Source of the DNA: Bellilinea caldifistulae
GTDB taxonomy: Bacteria; Chloroflexota; Anaerolineae; Anaerolineales; Anaerolineaceae
Assembly (NCBI RefSeq): GCF_001306055.1
Contig: NZ_LGHJ01000021.1
Span: forward strand, 1 to 32,000
DNA: 32,000 nt
Direction of reading: 5' to 3'
The position numbers were made by a program, and so were the translations under genes. The number at the start of each line of letters is the position of its first letter. Within the stretch, counting starts at the first letter, position 1. Of this stretch, positions 6,802 to 17,313 are shown in pieces. Under the pieces are notes generated by a model. The model did not search any database and had not been told where the DNA came from. It was given only the letters and a program-made list of their open reading frames with translations.

Positions 6802-6848
6802 TTTCCGTTTCCCAAAGCAAATTCTACCACGCTTGGGGTAAATTGCCC

Positions 6849-6888
6849 TGGCATAAAACTTGCACCATTTGCTGATGATCAGTATACT
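6849..6888 (+). promoter_or_regulatory. overlapping sigma54-like (-24/-12) and sigma70-like promoter elements upstream of rpoN
   Basis: TGGCAT (6849-6854), AAAAC, TTGCA (6860-6864), with the canonical GG-to-GC offset of 12. The same TTGCAC (6860-6865) lies 17 nt from TATACT (6883-6888). The element sits in the 111-nt trmFO/rpoN divergent region, 49 nt before the rpoN ATG. Confidence 0.5.
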
Positions 6889-6912: not shown

Positions 6913-8313
6913 ATGTTTCAAATCCAGAGTCCCAGTATCCGCACGGTAACTACCGCTCATTTAACCCAGACCATGACCCTCCTGAACCAGACGGTGGGAG
7001 AGTTATATCAGCAAATTCAACAGGAGTTGACCAACCCCGCCCTGGAGCTGGTAGAAGAACGCCGCTGTCCGACCTGTCATCGGGTGCTGCCGGGGCATGG
7101 TGAATGTCCGGTGTGCAGCCGCCCGGTCAGTATGCAGGCGGAAGAACCAGTTGTTTTTGTTTCGCCACGTGAGGATTTTTACTCTTCCGGTGGCTCGAGT
7201 GCGGATTTGATCCCCGATGAACCTGTTTCACCCATTGTGGAAGAGTTGCCCGTCTTCATTTTGCGTCAAATTGCGGTTGAGCTGGAGGGAGAAGAACGAC
7301 GGATTGCCGCCTTTTTCCTGACTCATCTGGATGAGGACGGGTTCTTGACCATTGCACCGGTTGAAATTGCCCAGTATTTTCATGTCCCGCTTTCAAAAGT
7401 GCTGCGTATTAAGCAACTCATCCAGCGCGCCGAACCTGTTGGGGTGGGGTCGGCCAATCCACAGGAAGCTTTGCTGGTTCAACTGGATGTCCTAAATGAA
7501 ACCAAGCCTACTCCTGAGTTAGCCCGGCACATCATTGCTGAGGCGATGGATTTGCTCACCCACCGTCAATACGCGGAAATTGCCCGCAAATTGAATGTTT
7601 CTTATCATCAAGTTCAGGAGACGGTGCGTTTCATTGGTGAAAACCTGAATCCTTTTCCGGCGCGAGCCCATTGGGGGGATGTGAGAAACCCCTCACCGAA
7701 AGCGGGAGAAGTCTATTACCATCCGGATATCATCATCAGTTACCTGAATAATTCTCCAGAAAACCCCCTGGTGGTTGAAATTATCTTGCCGATACGCGGA
7801 TATCTGAGGGTCAACCCTCTATTTCGGCAAGCGGCGCGGATTGCCAGTGAAGAAACCCGGATTGGAATGAAAAATGATCTGGAACGGGCAGCATTATTTG
7901 TCAAATGCTTACAGCAGAGGAACTTTACCATGCAGCGCTTAATGCAGCGGGTGGTCAGTATTCAACGAGATTTCATCTTGCGCGGTGACCGCTATATTAA
8001 ACCGTTGACCCGCGCTTCTCTGGCGGAGGAGCTGGGTGTTCATGAGTCGACCATTTCGCGGGCGGTTTCTAACAAAACAGTTCAATTGCCCAACAAGAAA
8101 ATCATTCCCCTAGCGAATTTCTTTGACCGCAGTCTGAATGTGCGGACGGCATTGCGGGAGATTATCTCAAGGGAAAAAAATCCTCTCAGTGATTCTCAAC
8201 TGGCGCGTTTGCTCGCCCAACAAGGTTATGAAGTTGCCCGGCGAACGGTGGCAAAATATCGGGCAATGGAGGGTATCCTCCCCGCCCACTTACGCAGAGT
8301 TAATCAGGTTTAG
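6913..8313 (+). CDS. rpoN: RNA polymerase sigma-54 factor with a Cys4 insertion in Region II
   Basis: Start reassigned to MFQIQSP (ATG 6913). Region I-like [45 protein letters not shown]. RpoN box ARRTVAKYR near the C-terminus. Confidence 0.9.
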
Positions 8314-8315
8314 AT

Positions 8316-10271
8316 ATGAGAGATGTAATCAGTCGTCCGATTCAGGCGTTATTTGGTAACAAAATTAATAAGATTGAACCCTATTCAGCCATTCAAAATT
8401 TACTGGAATTGATTGCAGAACCGGCGCTGGTGTATGATCCAGAGGGCAACCGAGTCCTTCTGGCGAACAGCGCATTTTTGGTGCTTTCTGCTTATTCCCA
8501 GCAGGAAGTCATAAATGAAAATTTAGAGAATTTATTGGAAAATCCCAGCCTCGAAGAAATCTTGAAAGAGGATAGCACTACGGGATTGTTGAGAACCCGT
8601 AATCGCTTGAGCATCCCGGTAGAAATTCGCAAAGGTGTGTTGGATCAACAAACCGGCTACGTCGTATTGAGGGTTATTTCCCAAATGACTTTGCAATATC
8701 TGAGCGGCAACTGGCAAAAGCGACTATTAACCACATTTCAGATGATTCCACGGTTTGTGGAGAATTCGTCTGGAGAATGGATGGAGACCGTTCAGCATTT
8801 GCTGGATGTGTTAAAGGGACTTTTTGAAACCAATCTGATCTGTATTTACCACGCCAGCGCCGATTTTCCCGAATTGCGCAAGCTGATCAGTCTCGAAGAG
8901 TTGACATTATTCCCCGATACCTTGCCGTCCAGCGATTTGATCCGCCTGTCGTTGCCCGTGTTGTGGACTCCGGGGAAGCGGATGACCACTCATTTACATC
9001 GTTCAGCAAGGATTGCGGGTGTCACTTATGTTGCCAGTGTTGCCATCGGTAGAGAAAATGCCTTGGAAGGTTTGCTTGTTGTGGGAGGTATGGAATCTCA
9101 GCCACCACCTTTATTATTAGAGACCATTGAAGTGCTGGCGGTTTATGTTTCTCAAGTCATCAGCCGTTCTGTTCTGGAAGAAAACATTAGAAGAGAAGCA
9201 GCGCGGAGGGAGTTTCAACTTCAGTTGTATGGGGCGGTTTATGAAGAAGTTCAAGAAGGGGTTGTGGTTGTTGACCCGGACTCGGTGATTATCGAAATCA
9301 ATCCCGCTGCAGAATTATTATTCGGTTATACGCGGAATGAGGTTCGGGGGGAGCGGATTGAAAATATTTTGATCACCCCTGATCGCTTTCTGCCAGCGCT
9401 TGCCAATGTGATGACAACGAAGACTTCGTCCCTGCTGGAAAACATCACTTTACACCGCCGAAACGGGCAAACCTTTGCAGCAGATGTGAAAATTTTACCG
9501 ATCCAGCACTATGGCGATCTGTCTGGAGTAGTCCTTCTGGTACGGGATATCAGCGAGCATGAGCAAATTCTGGCGCAATCCCGCCAGTTGGAACAACGCG
9601 CATTTCTCGGCGAGTTTATGGGTGTTTTTGCCCATGAAGTTCTCAACCCAATCAACAATATTTCTACCGGCTTACAAATTCTTTCCCGCCGGCTAGCCAG
9701 CGAAAATTCTTTACAGGAACTGGTTAGCCGTATGGAGAATGATTGTGAACGCTTGCACCACCAGATGGAAGCACTGAAAACCTATGCCAAGCCTTATGAA
9801 CCCAAGCAAGAAATGGTGGACGTCCCCCAATTGCTGAATCGCATTCTGGAGCGCTGGCGGCCGCGTATGGAAAGATTGAACGTACACCATGTGTTTCAAT
9901 CGGCGGAAAAACTACCACCTGTAAAAGGCGATTGGCGGGCACTTGATCAGGTTTTCAACAATCTCATCAGTAATGCGATTGATGCCATGAGAGAGAATGG
10001 CGGGGTCTTAAGCGTGAAAGTCAGCCTTTCAACGCTGGTATCTCCGCACCCGCATTTGGAAATTGCGGTGTCAGATAACGGGCCAGGAATCCCGGATGAT
10101 ATTCGAGAAAGGATCTTTGAGCCTTTTGTGACAACCAAAGCCAGCGGTACTGGCTTGGGCCTGTCTATCACAAAAAGGATCGTTACTGCCCATCGAGGGA
10201 GCATTACATTCAATAGTTACCCGGGCGGAACTGTATTCCGTATCTTTCTACCTGCCAGCGAGGAATCCTGA
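8316..10271 (+). CDS. soluble PAS-GAF-PAS sensor histidine kinase (NtrB-like)
   Basis: PAS segment ([30 protein letters not shown]...HRRNGQTF). H-box [13 protein letters not shown]-box [11 protein letters not shown]1 DNGPGIP, G2 GTGLGLSI. No TM segments. Starts 2 nt after the rpoN stop. Confidence 0.9.
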
Positions 10272-10273
10272 TT

Positions 10274-11449
10274 ATGTCCATAACCATCCTTGTAGTTGAT
10301 GATGAAGCCAATCTCAGAAAAAACATCTCAGATTACTTAACCCCGCTGGGTTATGAAGTAATTGGTGTGCCGACTCTCAGTGATGCTCGTACATGCCTGC
10401 AGCGTGGCAACGGGGATGTGGTTCTTCTGGATGTCTCACTGCCTGACGGCTACGGGCCGAGTTTGTTGTATGAAATGCAAAATATGCCTTATCGGCCACC
10501 GATGATCATCATCACTGCTCATGGCGATATAGAAATGGCAGTGGACGCCATGAAGAATGGCGCCCATGACTTTTTGACCAAACCGATTCAATTGACCCAA
10601 TTGGAAAATTCTATTTTGAGAGCTTGCGAAATCGTGCAAATGCGGAGGGAACTGGCTCATTTACGGCAAAGCCAGAAACAAAGTATTTCCTTTGTAGTGG
10701 GTAAAACCCATTCCATGGAATCGTTGCTCAGTCAGGCGCAGAAAGCCGCGCAGGCTCAGGTCTCAGTATTGATTACTGGCGAAACCGGCTCAGGGAAAGA
10801 AGTGCTTGCCCGGTTCATCCACAGCACAGGGCCGCGTTCGAACAAGCCGTTTATTGCGATTAATTGCGCAGCAATTCAACCCACCGTACTTGAATCGGAA
10901 TTGTTCGGCTACGAGGCAGGTGCATTTACCAGCGCGGAACGGCGTAAAAACGGTTTAATGGAAGTAGCCGATGGCGGCATCCTGTTTCTGGATGAGATTT
11001 CCTCTATGCCGTTGGATATTCAGGCCAAGTTGCTGAGAGCGATTGAGGAACATGCGTTTCGGCGGGTAGGCGGAACGAACTTAATTCAAGTGGATGTTCA
11101 AGTGCTGGCAGCTTCCAATCGCAACTTGAAAGAGATGATACAAGAAGGCAGTTTCCGGCAGGATTTATATTACCGCCTGAAGGTGGTGGACTTGCACCTG
11201 CCGCCCCTCCGCGAAAGAAAGATGGATATTCCTGAACTGGTGGGCTTCTTCATCCGGCAATACAAAGCCAAACTGGGGGTAAATGTGGACGATATTACTC
11301 CACGGGCAATGCAGGCTCTGATGGAGTATGATTGGCCGGGAAATATTCGCGAATTAAGCCATGCCATTGAGCGTGCCATGCTCTTTTGTGAGGGTCGGGC
11401 AATTGATTTACCGGACTTACCGGCGGATATAGCCCATCTGAACGGTTAG
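10274..11449 (+). CDS. sigma54-dependent response regulator (REC + AAA+), lacking a C-terminal HTH
   Basis: REC domain (VVLLDVSLPDG, LTKP). Walker A GETGSGKE, Walker B ILFLDEI. GAFTSA loop at nt 10919-10936. Arginine-finger region FRQDLYYRL. The protein ends about 25 aa after NIREL, leaving no room for a Fis-type HTH. Confidence 0.9.
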   Translation: MSITILVVDDEANLRKNISDYLTPLGYEVIGVPTLSDARTCLQRGNGDVVLLDVSLPDGYGPSLLYEMQNMPYRPPMIIITAHGDIEMAVDAMKNGAHDFLTKPIQLTQLENSILRACEIVQMRRELAHLRQSQKQSISFVVGKTHSMESLLSQAQKAAQAQVSVLITGETGSGKEVLARFIHSTGPRSNKPFIAINCAAIQPTVLESELFGYEAGAFTSAERRKNGLMEVADGGILFLDEISSMPLDIQAKLLRAIEEHAFRRVGGTNLIQVDVQVLAASNRNLKEMIQEGSFRQDLYYRLKVVDLHLPPLRERKMDIPELVGFFIRQYKAKLGVNVDDITPRAMQALMEYDWPGNIRELSHAIERAMLFCEGRAIDLPDLPADIAHLNG

Positions 11450-11460
11450 GAAGCAGTTTC

Positions 11461-11476
11461 TGGCACATTTCTTGCA
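11461..11476 (+). promoter_or_regulatory. consensus sigma54 (-24/-12) promoter
   Basis: TGGCAC (11461-11466), ATTTC, TTGCA (11472-11476), an exact match to TGGCAC-N5-TTGCW. It starts 11 nt after the activator stop (11447-11449) and lies 38 nt before the ATG at 11514. Predicted TSS is near 11486-11488. Confidence 0.8.
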
Positions 11477-11513
11477 TCATATCCTTCCAGCAGAGATCTA
11501 TGGGAGGAAGGGT

Positions 11514-11843
11514 ATGATGATTTTCGAAATGACCAGAAACGACTTTTTGCTGACCACGGCTGGGGTGGCCTTATGCTTGGGTGTCATCATGTGGTTGATT
11601 GGCGTGATTGTGCTGGTCAGCCGGGTGCTGGGTGGAGAAATCAAGCGAATCGCAGAACAAACCGCCCGACTGGCTCAAAAGGGGATTGCTGAAGAAGTTG
11701 CCGGTCTGATTGGGAATGCTTCCGGACTGATCGAATCCCTCAATCAACTGGTGCGGACGGCAGCTGGCATAGGTGTATTTTTGATCATTGCCGGCATGTT
11801 GATGATAGCAGCAGCCTTTGGGCTTGCCTTTCAAATCCAGTAA
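11514..11843 (+). CDS. small 2-TM membrane protein (hypothetical), first gene of the sigma54-driven operon
   Basis: 109 aa from the ATG at 11514, preceded by GGGAGGAAGG (11502-11511). N-terminal TM (VALCLGVIMWLIGVIVLV), a central amphipathic helix region, and a C-terminal TM (GIGVFLIIAGMLMIAAAFGLAF). Confidence 0.6.
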   Translation: MMIFEMTRNDFLLTTAGVALCLGVIMWLIGVIVLVSRVLGGEIKRIAEQTARLAQKGIAEEVAGLIGNASGLIESLNQLVRTAAGIGVFLIIAGMLMIAAAFGLAFQIQ

Positions 11844-11886: not shown

Positions 11887-14800
11887 ATGCCATCCGCAGA
11901 CCTCCTGGAAGTATTGAAAACAAGTTTGGCGGTGGAAGATGTGCCGGTTGTGTTTTCAGCGTTGAAGAGAGACGCTCTCGTCTGGGACGCAGTCCAGATC
12001 AGCTCGAACATTGAAGGGTTGAGCAGCGGACAAACGGTCAAAGAAGACTGGCAGCCAGCCAATCTGGTTTTGAGGATCTTGAACAGCCGCATGGATATCG
12101 CTGCTTTACAAGGTGACCATTTCCCCTCGGTTGAGCCTTCCATACGAAAAAAGGCGCTGGAATCTTTTGAAAATTTGCTGCGCACCGCTTCAAAACCGCA
12201 AAATTTGCGAGAGGCTGGTTTGATTGCGCTGGCATTACGCGAGCGTCGGCGTAAGACTCAAACCTGGCTTGGATTGATGGATGAACTCAAATCCATTCAT
12301 TTGAAGAATAAAATTTTCCTCCTCGAATTATGGAAAACACCGCTTGTGTGTTTGTTCGGCCTGATTCCGGACCGGGAAGATTATTTGAAAGCACTTTTAA
12401 GCCAAGAGGATTTCGTTCTTTCAAAAGAGTGGATCACTCATATCTTGTTAGGCAACCCATTAGGTGAAGATGAAACAAAACGCCTGTTCATGCTGGTTTT
12501 GGCGGAAATCTCTCTTGCTTCTCAGGTTGAATGGCTGGTTTATCTTAAAGGTTGCGATGAACCTCAACTGGCCGGATGGCTGGCAAACCAAATATTACGC
12601 GAAGGTCGTCTGAAAACTGGCGGTTTGTCCGGCGTGGATTGGGATGCCTTGCGTCAAAAATCGTGGGCTGAATTGGCCGGTGAAGCCCTGGATCTGCAAT
12701 GGACGGCAACTCTGCATCAGATAGCAGGACATCCGGCTCAATCAGAATTGTTTTTGAGCCGTTCCAGAAATTTATTACAGCACTGGCTGGGTGGTACAAC
12801 CCTGCAATTGATTTCGGTGGTGAAGAATGATTCCAGAGCAACCGAAACATTATGGGACGAGATTGAGCCTTTGCTCAGCACTCAACCCTTACCCGAAACA
12901 TTGATGGAGGAAGCTGTTTGGGTTAAACCACCTGTTTCTCTCATGCGGCGATTAAGCGAATTTAATCTGCCTGGATTGGTTCAGGTATTTGCAAAAGGAA
13001 GCGAAGCAGCGATTGGAGAGGAACACGAAAGCCGGGAAATTGTCAAAGAAGCCGTTTGGGAATGGTTAAAGCATCAACAGAACGAAGAAAAAATCCTTAG
13101 AGGACAATTTGTCTTTGAATATTCTCCTTTCGAATTATTGGCAATTTTAGAACACCTGAGTTTGTATCAGGAAGCCCTGGAAGTGGCCCAATTGTTCCTC
13201 AAGCGGCGTGTTAGAGATGTTTCTCTGATGACATGGACAGCTCGGCTTGCTCATCGTTTGGGTCAGGATGATATTGCAATCCGATTGATCCGCGAAGCCA
13301 TCTTATTGGAGGAAACCAATCCCCAACATTATCGGACTTACGCCAGAATGCTTGAGGATCGGAATGATTGGGAGTCGGCCTTGAAAATCCGTCAGGATAT
13401 CCTGAATCGTTTCGAAGATTCATCTTTAGAAGATCAGTTGAATCTGGTGACCTGTGCGATTGGAGGAAGGAATTACGATCTCGCGGTTCAAACCTGCCAG
13501 CAAATAATCGAACAGCATGGTGATCAGGGACAGGCTTATACCCTGTTAGGGTTGGCTCAGTTTGGAGAGGGAAAATTGGAAGAAGCCCAAACCAACCTGA
13601 CGAAAGCCACTCTTTTGATACCGGAAGAGCCCAAGCCATGGCTTGAATTAGCCCGATTGTACAAACACAACGGCGAGTCGCAAAGAGCGCTGGAAACCTT
13701 GAGGGCAGCTTTGTTGAATGTACCCGACTCGGCTGAATTACATCTTGCCATGGGAAGAGCATGTTTGGAAAATGGCCTATCGGCTGAAGCTTTACCCTAC
13801 TTAAAGCAGTCTGCCCGTTTAGCACCGGAGTCAGATGAAGTGGCATTGACCTTGATTAAGACCCTTGCTTCCCTTGGTCATGATAAGGAAGCCCTGGAAG
13901 TGGCAGAAAGAGCCCGACTGAAATGGCCGACTCATCCAGAATTGGCCTATGAACATGCGCGCATTTTGTTGCGGGATGGGGAGAGGAGCGAGGGTATTTC
14001 GATATTAGAAGTGGCACTTCAATTCGAAGGTGCGCGATTGGAATGGTTTGTGGAATATGCAAAAGTTCTTTTGAATGGTCTGGAATTGAGGCGGTTCTCC
14101 AGCGTGCCAGATTCGTCTGTTGGGATTTTAATCAAAGCCCAAAAAGCACTTCAGCGGGTTTTGAAGGAAGTACCCCATCATTTTGAAGCGCTCTTACTAA
14201 AATCGGAAATTCACTTGAATTTGCAGGAATGGGATCAGGCTTTGCCGGGATTCCAGCGATTGGTTGAATTTGAGCTGGCTGGTTCACCTGAGTGGCAATG
14301 GAGAATCCAATCCGGGCTTGGGGTTATTGCTTTTCATTCGGGTGAAAACGAAATGGCACTGGCAGCCCTGCAAAATGCCAGTCAGGCTTCCCCTGAAAAT
14401 TTGGATGTCAAGAAGCTGCTGGCAGAAGTGTACTTCCGTCTAAACCTTCTTGAATCATCCAAAGAAGTAGCTCAACAGGTGAGGAAGCTTCAGCCGAACA
14501 GCGTAGAGGGTTTAATTTGGTTTGCAAACTTAATGGAACGCTTGAATGAAATTCAACTCAGCATTGAAGCTTTTCAAACTCTTGTTCAACTGGTTCCTCA
14601 GGAAGTCGAGTATGCTTTGAATCTGGCTCGACTTTGGATGAAGAACGGTAATGATGAGGCAGCCGGTGAGGAATTGAAGCGATTGCTATCCCTGGAATAT
14701 ATCACGTCAGATCAATTGAAAAGGATGGCTGAGATAGCCCTGACAATCGGCGATTTGGAAGCAGCGAAGAAGGCTATTGACAAGGCGATTTTACTATCAC

Positions 14801-17313
14801 AGGAACCGGATTATTCCCTGCATTTCCACCTGGCTTTATTGCACTGGCGCAGTGGTGAGATTGAATCGGCTAATCATTCCCTGCAAACGGCTCTTACAAT
14901 AAATCCTAACGCAGCCGAGGCTTATATTTTCCAGAGCGAGTTGCAAAAATTAATGCAACGTCCCCAAGCAGCCATTGCCTCTTTGGAGAAGGCTTTACGA
15001 ATTTGTGAAAGTCAAGAGGGGAGAGGAGAAGCAATGGTGGATGACAAGGACAGTCAGGTGTGGGGGTACCAACCTGCAACCACCTTTACAGTTCACCGTC
15101 TGTTTGTTCCGGTATGCCTGGAAGCCGGTGAGTTAAATCTGGCTCTTTATCACGCCGAGAGCGCTTTGCAACTGTGTCCATCCTCACTGGAAATGGCTTA
15201 TCAGGTAGCCGATCTTGCCTACCGGCTGCTTCTTCCTGAACGGTTTAGCAAAATTACCACCGTGGTTGAGCAGAATCTTCCAATCGGTTGTTTTACCAGT
15301 TTCACCAGCGAGGAAGAAGCAGATTGGCTGGCTGGACTGCACGCTTTTCAGGCAGAAAGTCAAATTGAAAACGGAGATTTAATCGAAGCTGAGAAAATTA
15401 TTCAACGCGGATTGGCGCATAAACCGGATCATCTTCATCTCAGGACTGTTCGCATCCGATTAAATGCCAAACTGGGTAATTTTCCGGAAGCGCTTTCCGA
15501 GTTTCGCCAGGTATTTTTGAAGGTCCAGGAAGAAAAAAGTGCCGCGAACCACGAAAGGGGGTCTGCAGTCTTACGGACGCTGAGCGAAGCCGCCTTTGAT
15601 TTGATGGAGTGGCAGAATGGTATTCAGCTGGCAGAAAGAGTTTTGCAGGAGCACGAAAACGAACCGGCTGCCTATCTTTGTTATGCAAAGGGATTGATTC
15701 GGGCGCTGGAGTGGCAGCGGTTGAGTCAAATTCTGGGAATTGAAAACCACGCACTGAAGCCGGCTACCTCACTGACTATTCAGCGGCAAGCGAAGGAAAT
15801 GTTGGAAAAAGCAAGCCAGATGAGCCGCTCGCGCCTGTTGGATCATTGGGTGGCACGGGCAGAGGCATTGCTCCAGCCGGATTATCAACGTATTCAGGAT
15901 TTGAGCGCATTTGCTACCATAGACGAAGATTTTGCGTGGCTGGTTGAGATGCATCTGCGCACTAATAACCCGAGCGGTGCAATGCAAATGGCTGAAATCT
16001 GGCGACAGCACCCCTTTGTCCAAATGCTTTCAGCACTGCTTTGGGAGGATGAGGATGCCCCAAGAGCCCTTGATTACGCTCGTCATGCAGTTGAGCAGGC
16101 ACCTTTCCATCCGGTCTATCAAGCGGTACTGGCCCGAATGGCTGAAAAGAATCAGGATTATGCTCAGGCATTAGAAGCCATTGAGGTTGCGCTGGGGATT
16201 TGGGAGAACGAAATCATCTGGCAGATCAAGGCGGCGGATCTGGCTGAACGATGTGGTGAGATGGCATCTTGCCGTCATCATCTTGAAAAAGCCCTGCAAC
16301 TTAATCCAAATGATTACGATTTGCTCGTCCGGCTCGTGCAGCATTATTTGATGACCGGTTATTCTGATCACGCTGTGCAATTGCTGCAAAGTGTTGTCCA
16401 TTTATATGGCGAGCGCAGCGAAATCTGGCTGCTGATGGCTCTGGCATTACAGGGGTGTAATGACGATAAGGCTGCTTTGAGAGCTGCCGAAAAAGCCGTG
16501 GAATTGGACCACACCAATGGAAAGGCATGGATCACCGCTGGTAAAATTGCTCTACGAATGGGTGATGAAAACAAGGTGCTGTATTTTGCACGGCAGGCAG
16601 AAAAGGTTGCACCTGCGGATGCGGGCACCCGCTTGTTAGTGGTGAAAATCCTGATCCGTCAGGGGGAGTTGCGCGAGGCTCTAACCGAATTGAATCGGGC
16701 GATTGAAGAAATTCCCGGGCAATGGGAACTGGAGTTTGAGCGGGCAAGATTGGTTGGAGAATTACAAGGCGTGGCGGCAGCACAGGAATTGCTTCAGAGA
16801 TTGGTGGTGAATTACCCGCAAAATGAGCAGATTTTGTGGTTGTTTGCTCAAACCTGCATGAAAACCGGCAAAGTCAAACTGGCAGAGCAGAGCGGCTTGC
16901 AGGCATTGAAACTGAACCCGCAAAATGTGGAAATCCACCGGCTTTTGGCGGAAGTATTCAAAGATCAAGGGCAACTGGATCGAGCGGTGTTCCATCTTAG
17001 CGAAGCCATCCGGCTGCAACCAGCTCAGTTGGAAACCTATCTGAAACTGGGAGAAGTGTACACCACCCGTCGGGAATTCAGTAAAGCATTGGGGGTTTAC
17101 CAGCAGGCTATTCAAGTCAACCCAGAGGATTATCGCCCTTATTATTACTCGGCACTGGTTTTGCGGGATGGTAAAGATTATCCCGCGGCGGAGGTTATGC
17201 TAAGAAGGGCGGCTGAGTTAGCACCAGAGGATGTCAACATTCGCCGTCAGCTTGGTGCAATCATTGCACTGAATCTGGTTCATCACGGACAGGAGGCGAA
17301 AACATGCCTGTAA
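11887..17313 (+). CDS. giant tetratricopeptide-repeat (TPR) protein, 1808 aa
   Basis: Uninterrupted 5.4-kb ORF with RBS AAGGAG (11876-11881). Recurrent 34-aa TPR-like units run from about aa 450 to the C-terminus (e.g. AYTLLGLAQFGEGKLEEAQTNLTKATLLIPEEPKPW, YLKLGEVYTTRREFSKALGVYQQAIQVNPEDYRPY). No signal peptide. Confidence 0.85.
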   Translation: MPSADLLEVLKTSLAVEDVPVVFSALKRDALVWDAVQISSNIEGLSSGQTVKEDWQPANLVLRILNSRMDIAALQGDHFPSVEPSIRKKALESFENLLRTASKPQNLREAGLIALALRERRRKTQTWLGLMDELKSIHLKNKIFLLELWKTPLVCLFGLIPDREDYLKALLSQEDFVLSKEWITHILLGNPLGEDETKRLFMLVLAEISLASQVEWLVYLKGCDEPQLAGWLANQILREGRLKTGGLSGVDWDALRQKSWAELAGEALDLQWTATLHQIAGHPAQSELFLSRSRNLLQHWLGGTTLQLISVVKNDSRATETLWDEIEPLLSTQPLPETLMEEAVWVKPPVSLMRRLSEFNLPGLVQVFAKGSEAAIGEEHESREIVKEAVWEWLKHQQNEEKILRGQFVFEYSPFELLAILEHLSLYQEALEVAQLFLKRRVRDVSLMTWTARLAHRLGQDDIAIRLIREAILLEETNPQHYRTYARMLEDRNDWESALKIRQDILNRFEDSSLEDQLNLVTCAIGGRNYDLAVQTCQQIIEQHGDQGQAYTLLGLAQFGEGKLEEAQTNLTKATLLIPEEPKPWLELARLYKHNGESQRALETLRAALLNVPDSAELHLAMGRACLENGLSAEALPYLKQSARLAPESDEVALTLIKTLASLGHDKEALEVAERARLKWPTHPELAYEHARILLRDGERSEGISILEVALQFEGARLEWFVEYAKVLLNGLELRRFSSVPDSSVGILIKAQKALQRVLKEVPHHFEALLLKSEIHLNLQEWDQALPGFQRLVEFELAGSPEWQWRIQSGLGVIAFHSGENEMALAALQNASQASPENLDVKKLLAEVYFRLNLLESSKEVAQQVRKLQPNSVEGLIWFANLMERLNEIQLSIEAFQTLVQLVPQEVEYALNLARLWMKNGNDEAAGEELKRLLSLEYITSDQLKRMAEIALTIGDLEAAKKAIDKAILLSQEPDYSLHFHLALLHWRSGEIESANHSLQTALTINPNAAEAYIFQSELQKLMQRPQAAIASLEKALRICESQEGRGEAMVDDKDSQVWGYQPATTFTVHRLFVPVCLEAGELNLALYHAESALQLCPSSLEMAYQVADLAYRLLLPERFSKITTVVEQNLPIGCFTSFTSEEEADWLAGLHAFQAESQIENGDLIEAEKIIQRGLAHKPDHLHLRTVRIRLNAKLGNFPEALSEFRQVFLKVQEEKSAANHERGSAVLRTLSEAAFDLMEWQNGIQLAERVLQEHENEPAAYLCYAKGLIRALEWQRLSQILGIENHALKPATSLTIQRQAKEMLEKASQMSRSRLLDHWVARAEALLQPDYQRIQDLSAFATIDEDFAWLVEMHLRTNNPSGAMQMAEIWRQHPFVQMLSALLWEDEDAPRALDYARHAVEQAPFHPVYQAVLARMAEKNQDYAQALEAIEVALGIWENEIIWQIKAADLAERCGEMASCRHHLEKALQLNPNDYDLLVRLVQHYLMTGYSDHAVQLLQSVVHLYGERSEIWLLMALALQGCNDDKAALRAAEKAVELDHTNGKAWITAGKIALRMGDENKVLYFARQAEKVAPADAGTRLLVVKILIRQGELREALTELNRAIEEIPGQWELEFERARLVGELQGVAAAQELLQRLVVNYPQNEQILWLFAQTCMKTGKVKLAEQSGLQALKLNPQNVEIHRLLAEVFKDQGQLDRAVFHLSEAIRLQPAQLETYLKLGEVYTTRREFSKALGVYQQAIQVNPEDYRPYYYSALVLRDGKDYPAAEVMLRRAAELAPEDVNIRRQLGAIIALNLVHHGQEAKTCL

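Follow-up and report, generated by a model that had tools for sequence, protein, structure and literature searches.

Behind a sigma-54 gene and its activator in Bellilinea caldifistulae, within the first 32,000 nucleotides (nt) of contig NZ_LGHJ01000021.1 (this whole stretch is what we call the window), a short intergenic gap carries an element that looks like a complete -24/-12 promoter. This element, named P2 here, raises the question whether it truly serves the genes that follow it, and what becomes of transcripts that arrive at it from the regulator operon. According to our analysis, P2 is, with a probability of roughly 0.8 as judged from the sequence, a functional sigma-54 promoter of a three-gene operon, accompanied by a hairpin that would filter out read-through and by a composite promoter, P1, in front of the sigma-54 gene rpoN. 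The flagged element itself is ordinary; of more interest is the conserved architecture of the cassette in which it lies. The parts of the cassette, as read here, are the following.

6913-8313, plus strand: rpoN (sigma-54), 466 amino acids (aa), Pfam Sigma54_CBD and Sigma54_DBD, gene call start 6913
8316-10271, plus strand: PAS-domain histidine kinase, 651 aa, Pfam PAS, HisKA and HATPase_c
10274-11449, plus strand: response-regulator sigma-54 activator, 391 aa, built of REC, AAA+ and lid domains (Pfam REC, Sigma54_activat, AAA_lid)
11461-11476, plus strand: P2, the candidate sigma-54 -24/-12 promoter, TGGCACATTTCTTGCA, resting on sequence, shuffle statistics and conservation
11486-11488, plus strand: predicted P2 transcription start, placed by the position rule, which counts 12 nt from the C of the GC doublet
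11514-11843, plus strand: first gene of the putative P2 operon, a small membrane-type protein of 109 aa, ATG at 11514-11516
11887-17313, plus strand: tetratricopeptide-repeat (TPR) protein, 1808 aa, Pfam TPR families, syntenic in related loci
17304-19985, plus strand: 893-aa protein with an N-terminal TPR part and a C-terminal gingipain-like (peptidase C25) domain

The -24/-12 element P2 and the neighbouring regulator genes

P2 agrees with the TGGCAC-N5-TTGCW consensus at 11/11 positions, its GG (11462-11463) and GC (11474-11475) doublets being spaced by exactly 10 nt. It begins 11 nt 3' of the activator stop codon TAG (11447-11449), inside the 64-nt gap that separates the activator from the ATG at 11514, and lies on the same strand as the downstream genes; a Shine-Dalgarno sequence, GGGAGGAAGGG (11502-11512), begins 25 nt after it. 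An earlier note on this DNA had pointed to this consensus match with both its doublets, and to its place and correct orientation in the gap just past rpoN and the activator, and all of this agrees with the verified sequence, the coordinates and the Pfam assignments. Two of its numbers have to be corrected: the 38 nt that it gave as the distance to the Shine-Dalgarno sequence counts from 11476, the last motif base, to the ATG at 11514 (37 intervening nt), and its chance rate of about one match per 4 Mb per strand becomes about one per 2 Mb per strand, since the last consensus position is W.

Could such a match be a functionless accident? The exact consensus occurs once in the window against 0.05 occurrences expected from dinucleotide-preserving shuffles, and at least one match appears in 5/100 shuffles, that is, a window of 32 kb would contain one by chance in about 5% of cases. 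This single-window p of about 0.05 is insufficient alone; the decisive evidence is conservation in orthologous gaps. Allowing one mismatch adds a second site in the window, at 6849-6864; the loose pattern TGG-N9-TGC shows no enrichment in the window (19 found, 23.5 expected), and only the two full sites stand out.

The comparison is based on a scan with the sigma-54 protein over one genome per species, which gave 80 loci, of about 21 kb per genome, all from Anaerolineaceae (Bellilinea, Leptolinea, Longilinea, Levilinea, Ornatilinea, Anaerolinea and metagenome-assembled genomes), with sigma-54 identities of 58-96%. Wherever the contig reaches, these 80 genomes keep the same order, with a divergent trmFO followed by rpoN, kinase, activator, small protein, giant TPR protein and TPR/C25 protein. 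A P2-type TGGCAY-N5-TTGCA is present between the activator and the small gene in 71/71 loci that contain this gap, and is the best consensus match there (9-11 of 11). Its columns G2, G3, A5, T12, T13, G14, C15 and A16 are invariant and C4 is kept in 69/71, position 6 is C or T, and the five spacer positions together with both flanks carry about 0 bits of information. The downstream start codon stands at +24 to +31 from the predicted transcription start in all loci, whereas the distance of P2 to the activator stop is 4-25 nt in most of them and 52, 115 and 523 nt in three; being fixed relative to the start codon and variable relative to the stop, the element tracks the downstream gene. Finally, a search for TGGYAY-N5-TTGCW in 1.47 Mb of the related loci returned 147 matches, of which 64 are P2, 76 belong to P1 (described below) and 7 lie elsewhere (5.6 expected).

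On these comparative sequences, chance and coding constraint are excluded as explanations of the conservation of P2. The view that the motif is a functionless chance match, to which we would give a practically negligible probability, must be regarded as already refuted by the comparative data, with 71/71 orthologous gaps occupied, GG and TTGC invariant between unconserved flanks, and 140/147 matches at just two positions. We consider P2, with high confidence, to be a working sigma-54 promoter, and the proposal of the earlier note that it serves the downstream genes gains strong comparative support from the 71/71 loci.

The machinery encoded in front of P2 is conserved together with it. Neighbouring genes of the rpoN, kinase and activator series are spaced 2 nt apart, the kinase beginning 2 nt past the rpoN stop, and the sigma-54 of the window has the RpoN box ARRTVAKYR, which is found in 75/77 orthologues. 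In the activator Pfam recognises REC, Sigma54_activat (230 bits) and AAA_lid_14, the last ending at residue 387/391, and Walker A is intact. No helix-turn-helix or other DNA-binding domain was detected by Pfam in this protein, and all 70 of its orthologues (388-397 aa) are likewise without one. It aligns with NtrC over 1-383/463, with AtoC over 6-391/461 and with Campylobacter FlgR over 2-377/429, stopping where these models have 50-80 residues left, and so it ends where the DNA-binding domain would begin. The earlier note had described an activator without such a domain, and the Pfam result, the truncated NtrC/AtoC alignment and the uniform length of the orthologues all agree with that description. 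An activator of this kind would require no upstream enhancer; upstream of either -24 site, P2 or P1, we found no conserved element or convincing inverted repeat, except the -10 box of the divergent trmFO.

The sigma-54 protein also has a zinc-ribbon-like CPxC...CPxC insert at residues 51-68 (window about 7063-7116), present in 77/77 Anaerolineaceae orthologues. Its place, after region I and before the core-binding domain, is taken in other sigma-54 proteins by the variable region II, and we know of no described function for it.

The hairpin over P2 and the first start codon

What happens to RNA that comes from the regulator operon and passes P2? The earlier note saw no terminator that separates the promoter from the operon in front of it and supposed that read-through and sigma-54 initiation would both feed the downstream genes, which is contradicted by a conserved and covarying hairpin with these arms.

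11475-11488, plus strand: CATCATATCCTTCC, 5' arm, spanning -12 to +2 of P2
11506-11519, plus strand: GGAAGGGTATGATG, 3' arm, holding the ATG at 11514-11516 and, before it, the 3' half of the Shine-Dalgarno sequence

From -10 to about +4, P2 can pair with the Shine-Dalgarno sequence of the first gene and with its AUG, and in the window the arms, of 14 nt each, are 93% complementary, forming a stem of 12-14 base pairs around a loop of 17 nt. RNA covering 11477-11522 folds at -17.8 kcal/mol (z -3.1), in a structure whose stem takes in the AUG and the 3' half of the Shine-Dalgarno sequence, and RNA from the predicted +1 (11487) reaches -2.1 kcal/mol (z +1.3). A comparable hairpin is found in every relative, with means over the 71 loci of -18.4 kcal/mol when the RNA is taken from -10 and -3.2 when it is taken from +1; GGAGG is fully paired in 49/71 full-length RNAs versus 4/71 RNAs from +1. 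Rfam gave no match at the sigma-54 locus.

It is the pairing that is preserved rather than the letters, as arm sequences vary by clade while complementarity is kept. The two arms of one locus fold at -18.2 kcal/mol, against -11.2 when arms of different loci are combined into chimeras and -6.0 after shuffling. When the arms are aligned without gaps, with the Shine-Dalgarno A as anchor, the 45 distinct arm pairs have 81% of their cells paired against 68.5% in shuffles (reached by 0/500), and the covariation score of these 45 anchored sequences is 0.386, compared with 0.179 after shuffling (0/500) and 0.09-0.15 in slid registers. Double changes occur in 11/16 pairs, and the pair beside the Shine-Dalgarno core is AU in 13 sequences, GC in 12, UA in 10 and CG in 4.

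The location of the 5' arm relative to the start of transcription is what gives the hairpin its possible meaning. At characterised -24/-12 promoters the C of the GC doublet precedes the transcription start by about 12 nt. With the start predicted by this rule, the partners of GGAGG lie within -6 to +2 and end between -2 and +2 in 52/52 loci that have at least 4 of the 5 GGAGG bases paired, and RNA from +1 would retain 0-1 of these partners in 51/52 loci and 2 in one; the outer stem begins at -10 in 40/71 loci. As the 5' arm lies mostly upstream of the predicted start, only read-through RNA would be able to form the hairpin, and RNA started at P2 would not. Read-through is thus probably filtered out rather than added to the sigma-54 output. 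The explanation to which we incline, with some reserve, from the fold and its positional constraints, is that the hairpin tells transcripts of different origin apart by masking the ribosome-binding site.

Within the 5' arm, the metagenome assembly ERZ795108, nearly identical to the window, shows A->G at its position 11208 (L001), corresponding to 11481 in the window (TCATATCC vs TCATGTCC); the A-U pair becomes G-U and the pairing is kept.

A serious but in our opinion unlikely alternative is that the hairpin works mainly as an intrinsic terminator or 3'-end stabiliser of the rpoN-kinase-activator operon, with P2 embedded in it and masking as a secondary effect. It is compatible with a real P2 promoter and differs only in how read-through would be stopped. 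The GC-rich stem, of about 13 pairs and -18 kcal/mol on average, would suit a terminator, and 5-7 T are found among the 8 nt after the stem in 36/64 distinct loci, for example GGAGGTTTTTTTATG (L067) and GGAGGTTTTTTATG (L032). Several clades, however, have no T run but A-rich tails, loci L073-L077 having AAAATG in its place, and in the window the tail, TGATTTTCG, is weak and the loop is 17 nt long; judged by the U tract expected of an intrinsic terminator, the sequence after the stem reads UGAUUUUCG. A generic terminator scan of the window did not list the hairpin, the loop of which exceeds 8 nt, and its terminator-like matches (26, against 16.2 with a standard deviation of 4.2 in shuffles) are not clearly above expectation. 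What a pure terminator would not need at all is the choice of pairing partners: every scorable locus has the Shine-Dalgarno sequence in the pairing of the 3' arm, with all of GGAGG in the 49 loci counted above and at least part of it in the rest, and in many loci, including those of the window's clade, the start codon is in the stem as well. Masking of the ribosome-binding site, as predicted from the folds, is the universal feature; termination may contribute, and in some relatives read-through RNA is possibly terminated.

A further alternative, which we judge improbable, is that the hairpin forms in all transcripts including those of P2, the true start being a few bases further upstream, and acts as a 5' stabilising stem or as a translational lock opened by a signal such as temperature, a protein or a small RNA. 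The inner stem and the Shine-Dalgarno/anti-Shine-Dalgarno core would indeed survive a start shifted 3-6 nt upstream. This is opposed by the established start rule for -24/-12 promoters, and also by the distribution of covariation, which is strongest in the outer stem (for example columns 4-6 with 27-29), the part that begins at -10 in many loci and would be excluded from sigma-54-started RNA.

The second site P1 and the proposed circuit

The earlier note missed a second sigma-54 site, which lies before rpoN and overlaps with elements of another promoter type.

6849-6864, plus strand: P1, sigma-54-type -24/-12 element, TGGCATAAAACTTGCA, with one consensus mismatch, 48 nt before the rpoN start
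6860-6865 and 6883-6888, plus strand: sigma-70-type promoter overlapping P1, made of TTGCAC (-35-like), a 17-nt spacer and TATACT (-10)

An equivalent of P1 lies 30-65 nt upstream of rpoN in 82/82 fetched loci, and its GG, A5 and TTGC are invariant in the 81/81 loci that could be anchored for a position profile. TATACT follows exactly 18 nt after the TTGCA of P1 in 76/81 loci, and the pattern TTG-N20-TAnnnT is present in 78/81 P1 regions versus 0/71 P2 regions, the -12 element of the sigma-54 site thus doubling as a sigma-70-type -35 element. TGGCAY has no role in a sigma-70-type promoter and yet is invariant, from which we argue that sigma-54 holoenzyme binds P1 too, and consider this likely.

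Several observations were made on the sequences around P1. The first base of the -24 element is not T in both P1 and P2 of the same six loci (L073-L077 and L079), which probably reflects a single evolutionary event, though it fits one protein reading both sites. Before rpoN of L068 and L071 (about 9900-9960) two sigma-54-type motifs stand in tandem, in L071 as TGGTATGATTCTTGCA followed directly by TGGCACATTACTTGCA, and L072 has a tandem half-site pattern upstream of its rpoN. At 6810-6822 of the window, ahead of P1, the sequence AATTCTACCA(C/T)G is conserved; read on the minus strand it gives an extended -10 box, TGGTAGAAT, which is probably the promoter of the divergent trmFO.

From these elements we propose the following course of events. 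Sigma-54 holoenzyme, its sigma factor encoded 3 kb upstream, would bind P2 as a closed complex, and the PAS kinase would phosphorylate the adjacent REC-AAA+ activator, which would then oligomerise and remodel the closed complex from solution and without an enhancer, in the manner of CtcC and FlgR, as suggested by the lack of a DNA-binding domain. P2 transcription would begin near 11487 and drive the small membrane protein, the 1808-aa TPR protein and the TPR-gingipain-like peptidase. RNA that reads through from the regulator operon would fold and hide the ribosome-binding site, and P2 RNA, being without the 5' arm, would be translatable; as only read-through would be masked, the output of the effector operon would come to depend on sigma-54 initiation. 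At the other end of the cassette, the sigma-70-type pair of P1 would supply basal rpoN, kinase and activator. There a sigma-54 closed complex would at rest compete with the housekeeping holoenzyme, since the -35 element is at the same time the -12 element of the second sigma-54 site, and the active activator would turn this complex into an additional, self-amplifying promoter and so establish positive feedback.

The same sites may be imagined as holding non-productive sigma-54 closed complexes, P2 being a roadblock to read-through and P1 occluding the -35 element, with neither of them an activated promoter. The coincidence of the -12 element of P1 with the -35-like TTGCAC would agree with that, as would the repressive sigma-54 proposed for dual promoters of Chlamydia (PMC7482065) and the negative autoregulation of Rhizobium leguminosarum rpoN (PMC3538637). 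We find this very improbable: a kinase and an AAA+ activator with Walker A and GAFT(G/S)A are co-conserved in the operon in all loci, the spacing of P2 to the start codon (+24 to +31) is promoter-like, and no sigma-70-type -10 overlaps P2 in any of the 71 loci.

The reading of P2 as an activated promoter with a hairpin filter and a composite P1 has to carry several observations that weigh against it. The sigma-54 of the window matches TIGR02395 over the full profile length at 255 bits, under the cut-off of 277, and the loop of its activator is GAFTSA, not the canonical GAFTGA (among orthologues GAFTGA occurs 38 times and GAFTSA 27 times). At P1, TTGCAC has 3/6 of TTGACA, and a generic sigma-70 promoter scan of the window did not list the site. 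The read-through filter requires a start within about 2 nt of the predicted position, as with a start 3 nt further upstream 4/5 anti-Shine-Dalgarno bases would be retained in most loci. Anchoring each sequence by its own predicted fold biases the pair counts toward structure, which the slid-register and chimera controls address, and an unanchored MAFFT/RNAalifold alignment recovered only the anti-Shine-Dalgarno/Shine-Dalgarno core together with spurious intra-promoter pairing; the lengths of loop and outer stem differ between clades.

We may even suggest, as a tentative idea that is more doubtful than probable, that sigma-54 of Anaerolineaceae is a dedicated and self-contained switch like the extracytoplasmic-function sigma factors, serving only P1 and P2, with clamp and feedback at the first and a reading of transcript origin at the second. 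If this were true, the fusion of elements at P1 would allow sigma-54 to hold its own basal level in check and, on a signal, to switch over to positive feedback. All parts of a sigma-54 circuit, namely sigma factor, sensor, enhancer-independent activator, two promoters and targets, are found within about 13 kb in about 80 species, which makes it a testable model.

If confirmed, an element that is both -12 for sigma-54 and -35 for the housekeeping factor at rpoN would be of general interest, combining competition at rest with feedback on activation. An anti-Shine-Dalgarno arm placed in the -10 to +1 region of a promoter would allow translation only of transcripts born there, and this would be a simple and portable way to insulate an internal promoter from read-through, usable in synthetic circuits.

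Known systems, operon products and neighbouring genes

Each component of the cassette is precedented, that is, -24/-12 promoters, activators without a DNA-binding domain, self-amplified rpoN and fold-back masking; for their combination we found no published description. To our knowledge, nearly all that is understood of sigma-54 comes from work on Proteobacteria, Firmicutes, Chlamydia and a few other groups. Some Chloroflexota are known to carry a sigma-54 gene (PMC3162934); beyond this presence we found nothing in the literature on sigma-54 in Chloroflexota, and no paper on sigma-54 in Anaerolineae. A literature search on a sigma-54 site upstream of rpoN and on 'fold-back inhibition' gave nothing directly relevant.

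Among the closest known systems is CtcB/CtcC of Chlamydia trachomatis, likewise a two-component kinase and a REC-AAA+ activator that has to act on sigma-54 holoenzyme without an enhancer. There, CtcC is described as having no DNA-binding domain, dual sigma-54/sigma-66 promoters occur at some targets, at which sigma-54 is the proposed inhibitor when the activator is off, and the sigma-54 regulon comprises 64 genes by RNA sequencing (PMC7482065). In Bellilinea, in contrast, rpoN, kinase and activator form one operon that adjoins its target, a sigma-54 site lies at the rpoN promoter, and a hairpin predicted to be specific to read-through overlaps the target promoter. FlgS/FlgR of Helicobacter and Campylobacter have the same REC and AAA+ activator without a functional DNA-binding domain, classed as type Ic enhancer-binding proteins by Francke et al. 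2011 (PMC3162934), according to which activators without this domain make up about 4% of enhancer-binding proteins. The Bellilinea activator scores 307 bits against a FlgR cut-off of 750 and is therefore no orthologue, its putative targets are non-flagellar and its host belongs to Chloroflexota.

For autoregulation, the nifU2-rpoN superoperon of Rhodobacter capsulatus is comparable, as it likewise combines a weak constitutive promoter with a sigma-54- and activator-dependent one by which sigma-54 amplifies its own synthesis. It goes back to Cullen et al. 1994, as described in PMC6925177, where one rpoN promoter is constitutive and the other is activated by NifA and RpoN. Its promoters are separate, upstream of nifU2 and of rpoN, and NifA binds DNA, whereas the promoters of Bellilinea overlap base for base and its activator has no DNA-binding domain and appears co-transcribed with rpoN.

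The masking has its parallel in IS10, where sequence just upstream of the resident start reportedly pairs with the ribosome-binding site, outside transcripts being untranslated and resident ones translated. There a mobile element defends itself, and the promoter is of sigma-70 type; in Bellilinea it would be a sigma-54 promoter at which a regulator operon is kept apart from the effector genes that it controls, and the arrangement is conserved across a bacterial family. The protection of IS10/Tn10 from external promoters, termed 'fold-back inhibition', is credited to Davis, Simons & Kleckner 1985 in PMC13181058.

The PEP-CTERM system PrsK/PrsR/PrsT likewise has a large TPR protein in one neighbourhood with a kinase and a sigma-54-dependent response regulator. 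Membership in it was rejected, with the activator at 343.6 bits for TIGR02915 (cut-off 502.6) and the 1808-aa protein at 259.6 bits for TIGR02917 (cut-off 312.2). The AtoC and NtrC models outscore PrsR for the Bellilinea activator, PrsR proteins have a DNA-binding domain, and no exosortase was found among the scanned and annotated open reading frames of the window.

Turning to the products of the putative P2 operon, the 109-aa protein has two hydrophobic, probably membrane-spanning stretches, judged by inspection, and no Pfam or NCBIfam match; it has about 156 homologues, all of Anaerolineae type, and is syntenic across all loci. The 893-aa protein is 100% identical to the database entry 'peptidase family C25 [Bellilinea caldifistulae]' and has more than 2800 database homologues, the top 120 listed being 49-100% identical over almost the whole domain. 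Its link to gingipains is drawn from three sources: homologues carry precomputed PF01364 matches, H615-G616 and A661-C662 are invariant in 25 homologues, and Foldseek matched the predicted model, which is of moderate confidence, to gingipain K (6i9a_A, 4rbm) with E 2.4e-4 over about 475 columns. The mean predicted local distance difference test score of that model is 64, with about 90 in the TPR part and 40-85 in the C-terminal part, and sequence searches of PDB with the peptidase-like domain returned TPR matches only. No signal peptide is apparent by eye. A cytoplasmic TPR scaffold together with a peptidase of gingipain/caspase fold in filamentous bacteria hints at a regulated proteolytic programme.

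The remaining genes of the window are ordinary housekeeping ones. Among them, a glycine riboswitch (RF00504, 67.6 bits) lies directly upstream of gcvH, an ordinary known arrangement, in the following order on the minus strand.

28000-28099, minus strand: glycine riboswitch RF00504
27466-27858, minus strand: gcvH, downstream of the glycine riboswitch
26117-27466, minus strand: gcvPA, downstream of the glycine riboswitch
24655-26124, minus strand: gcvPB, downstream of the glycine riboswitch

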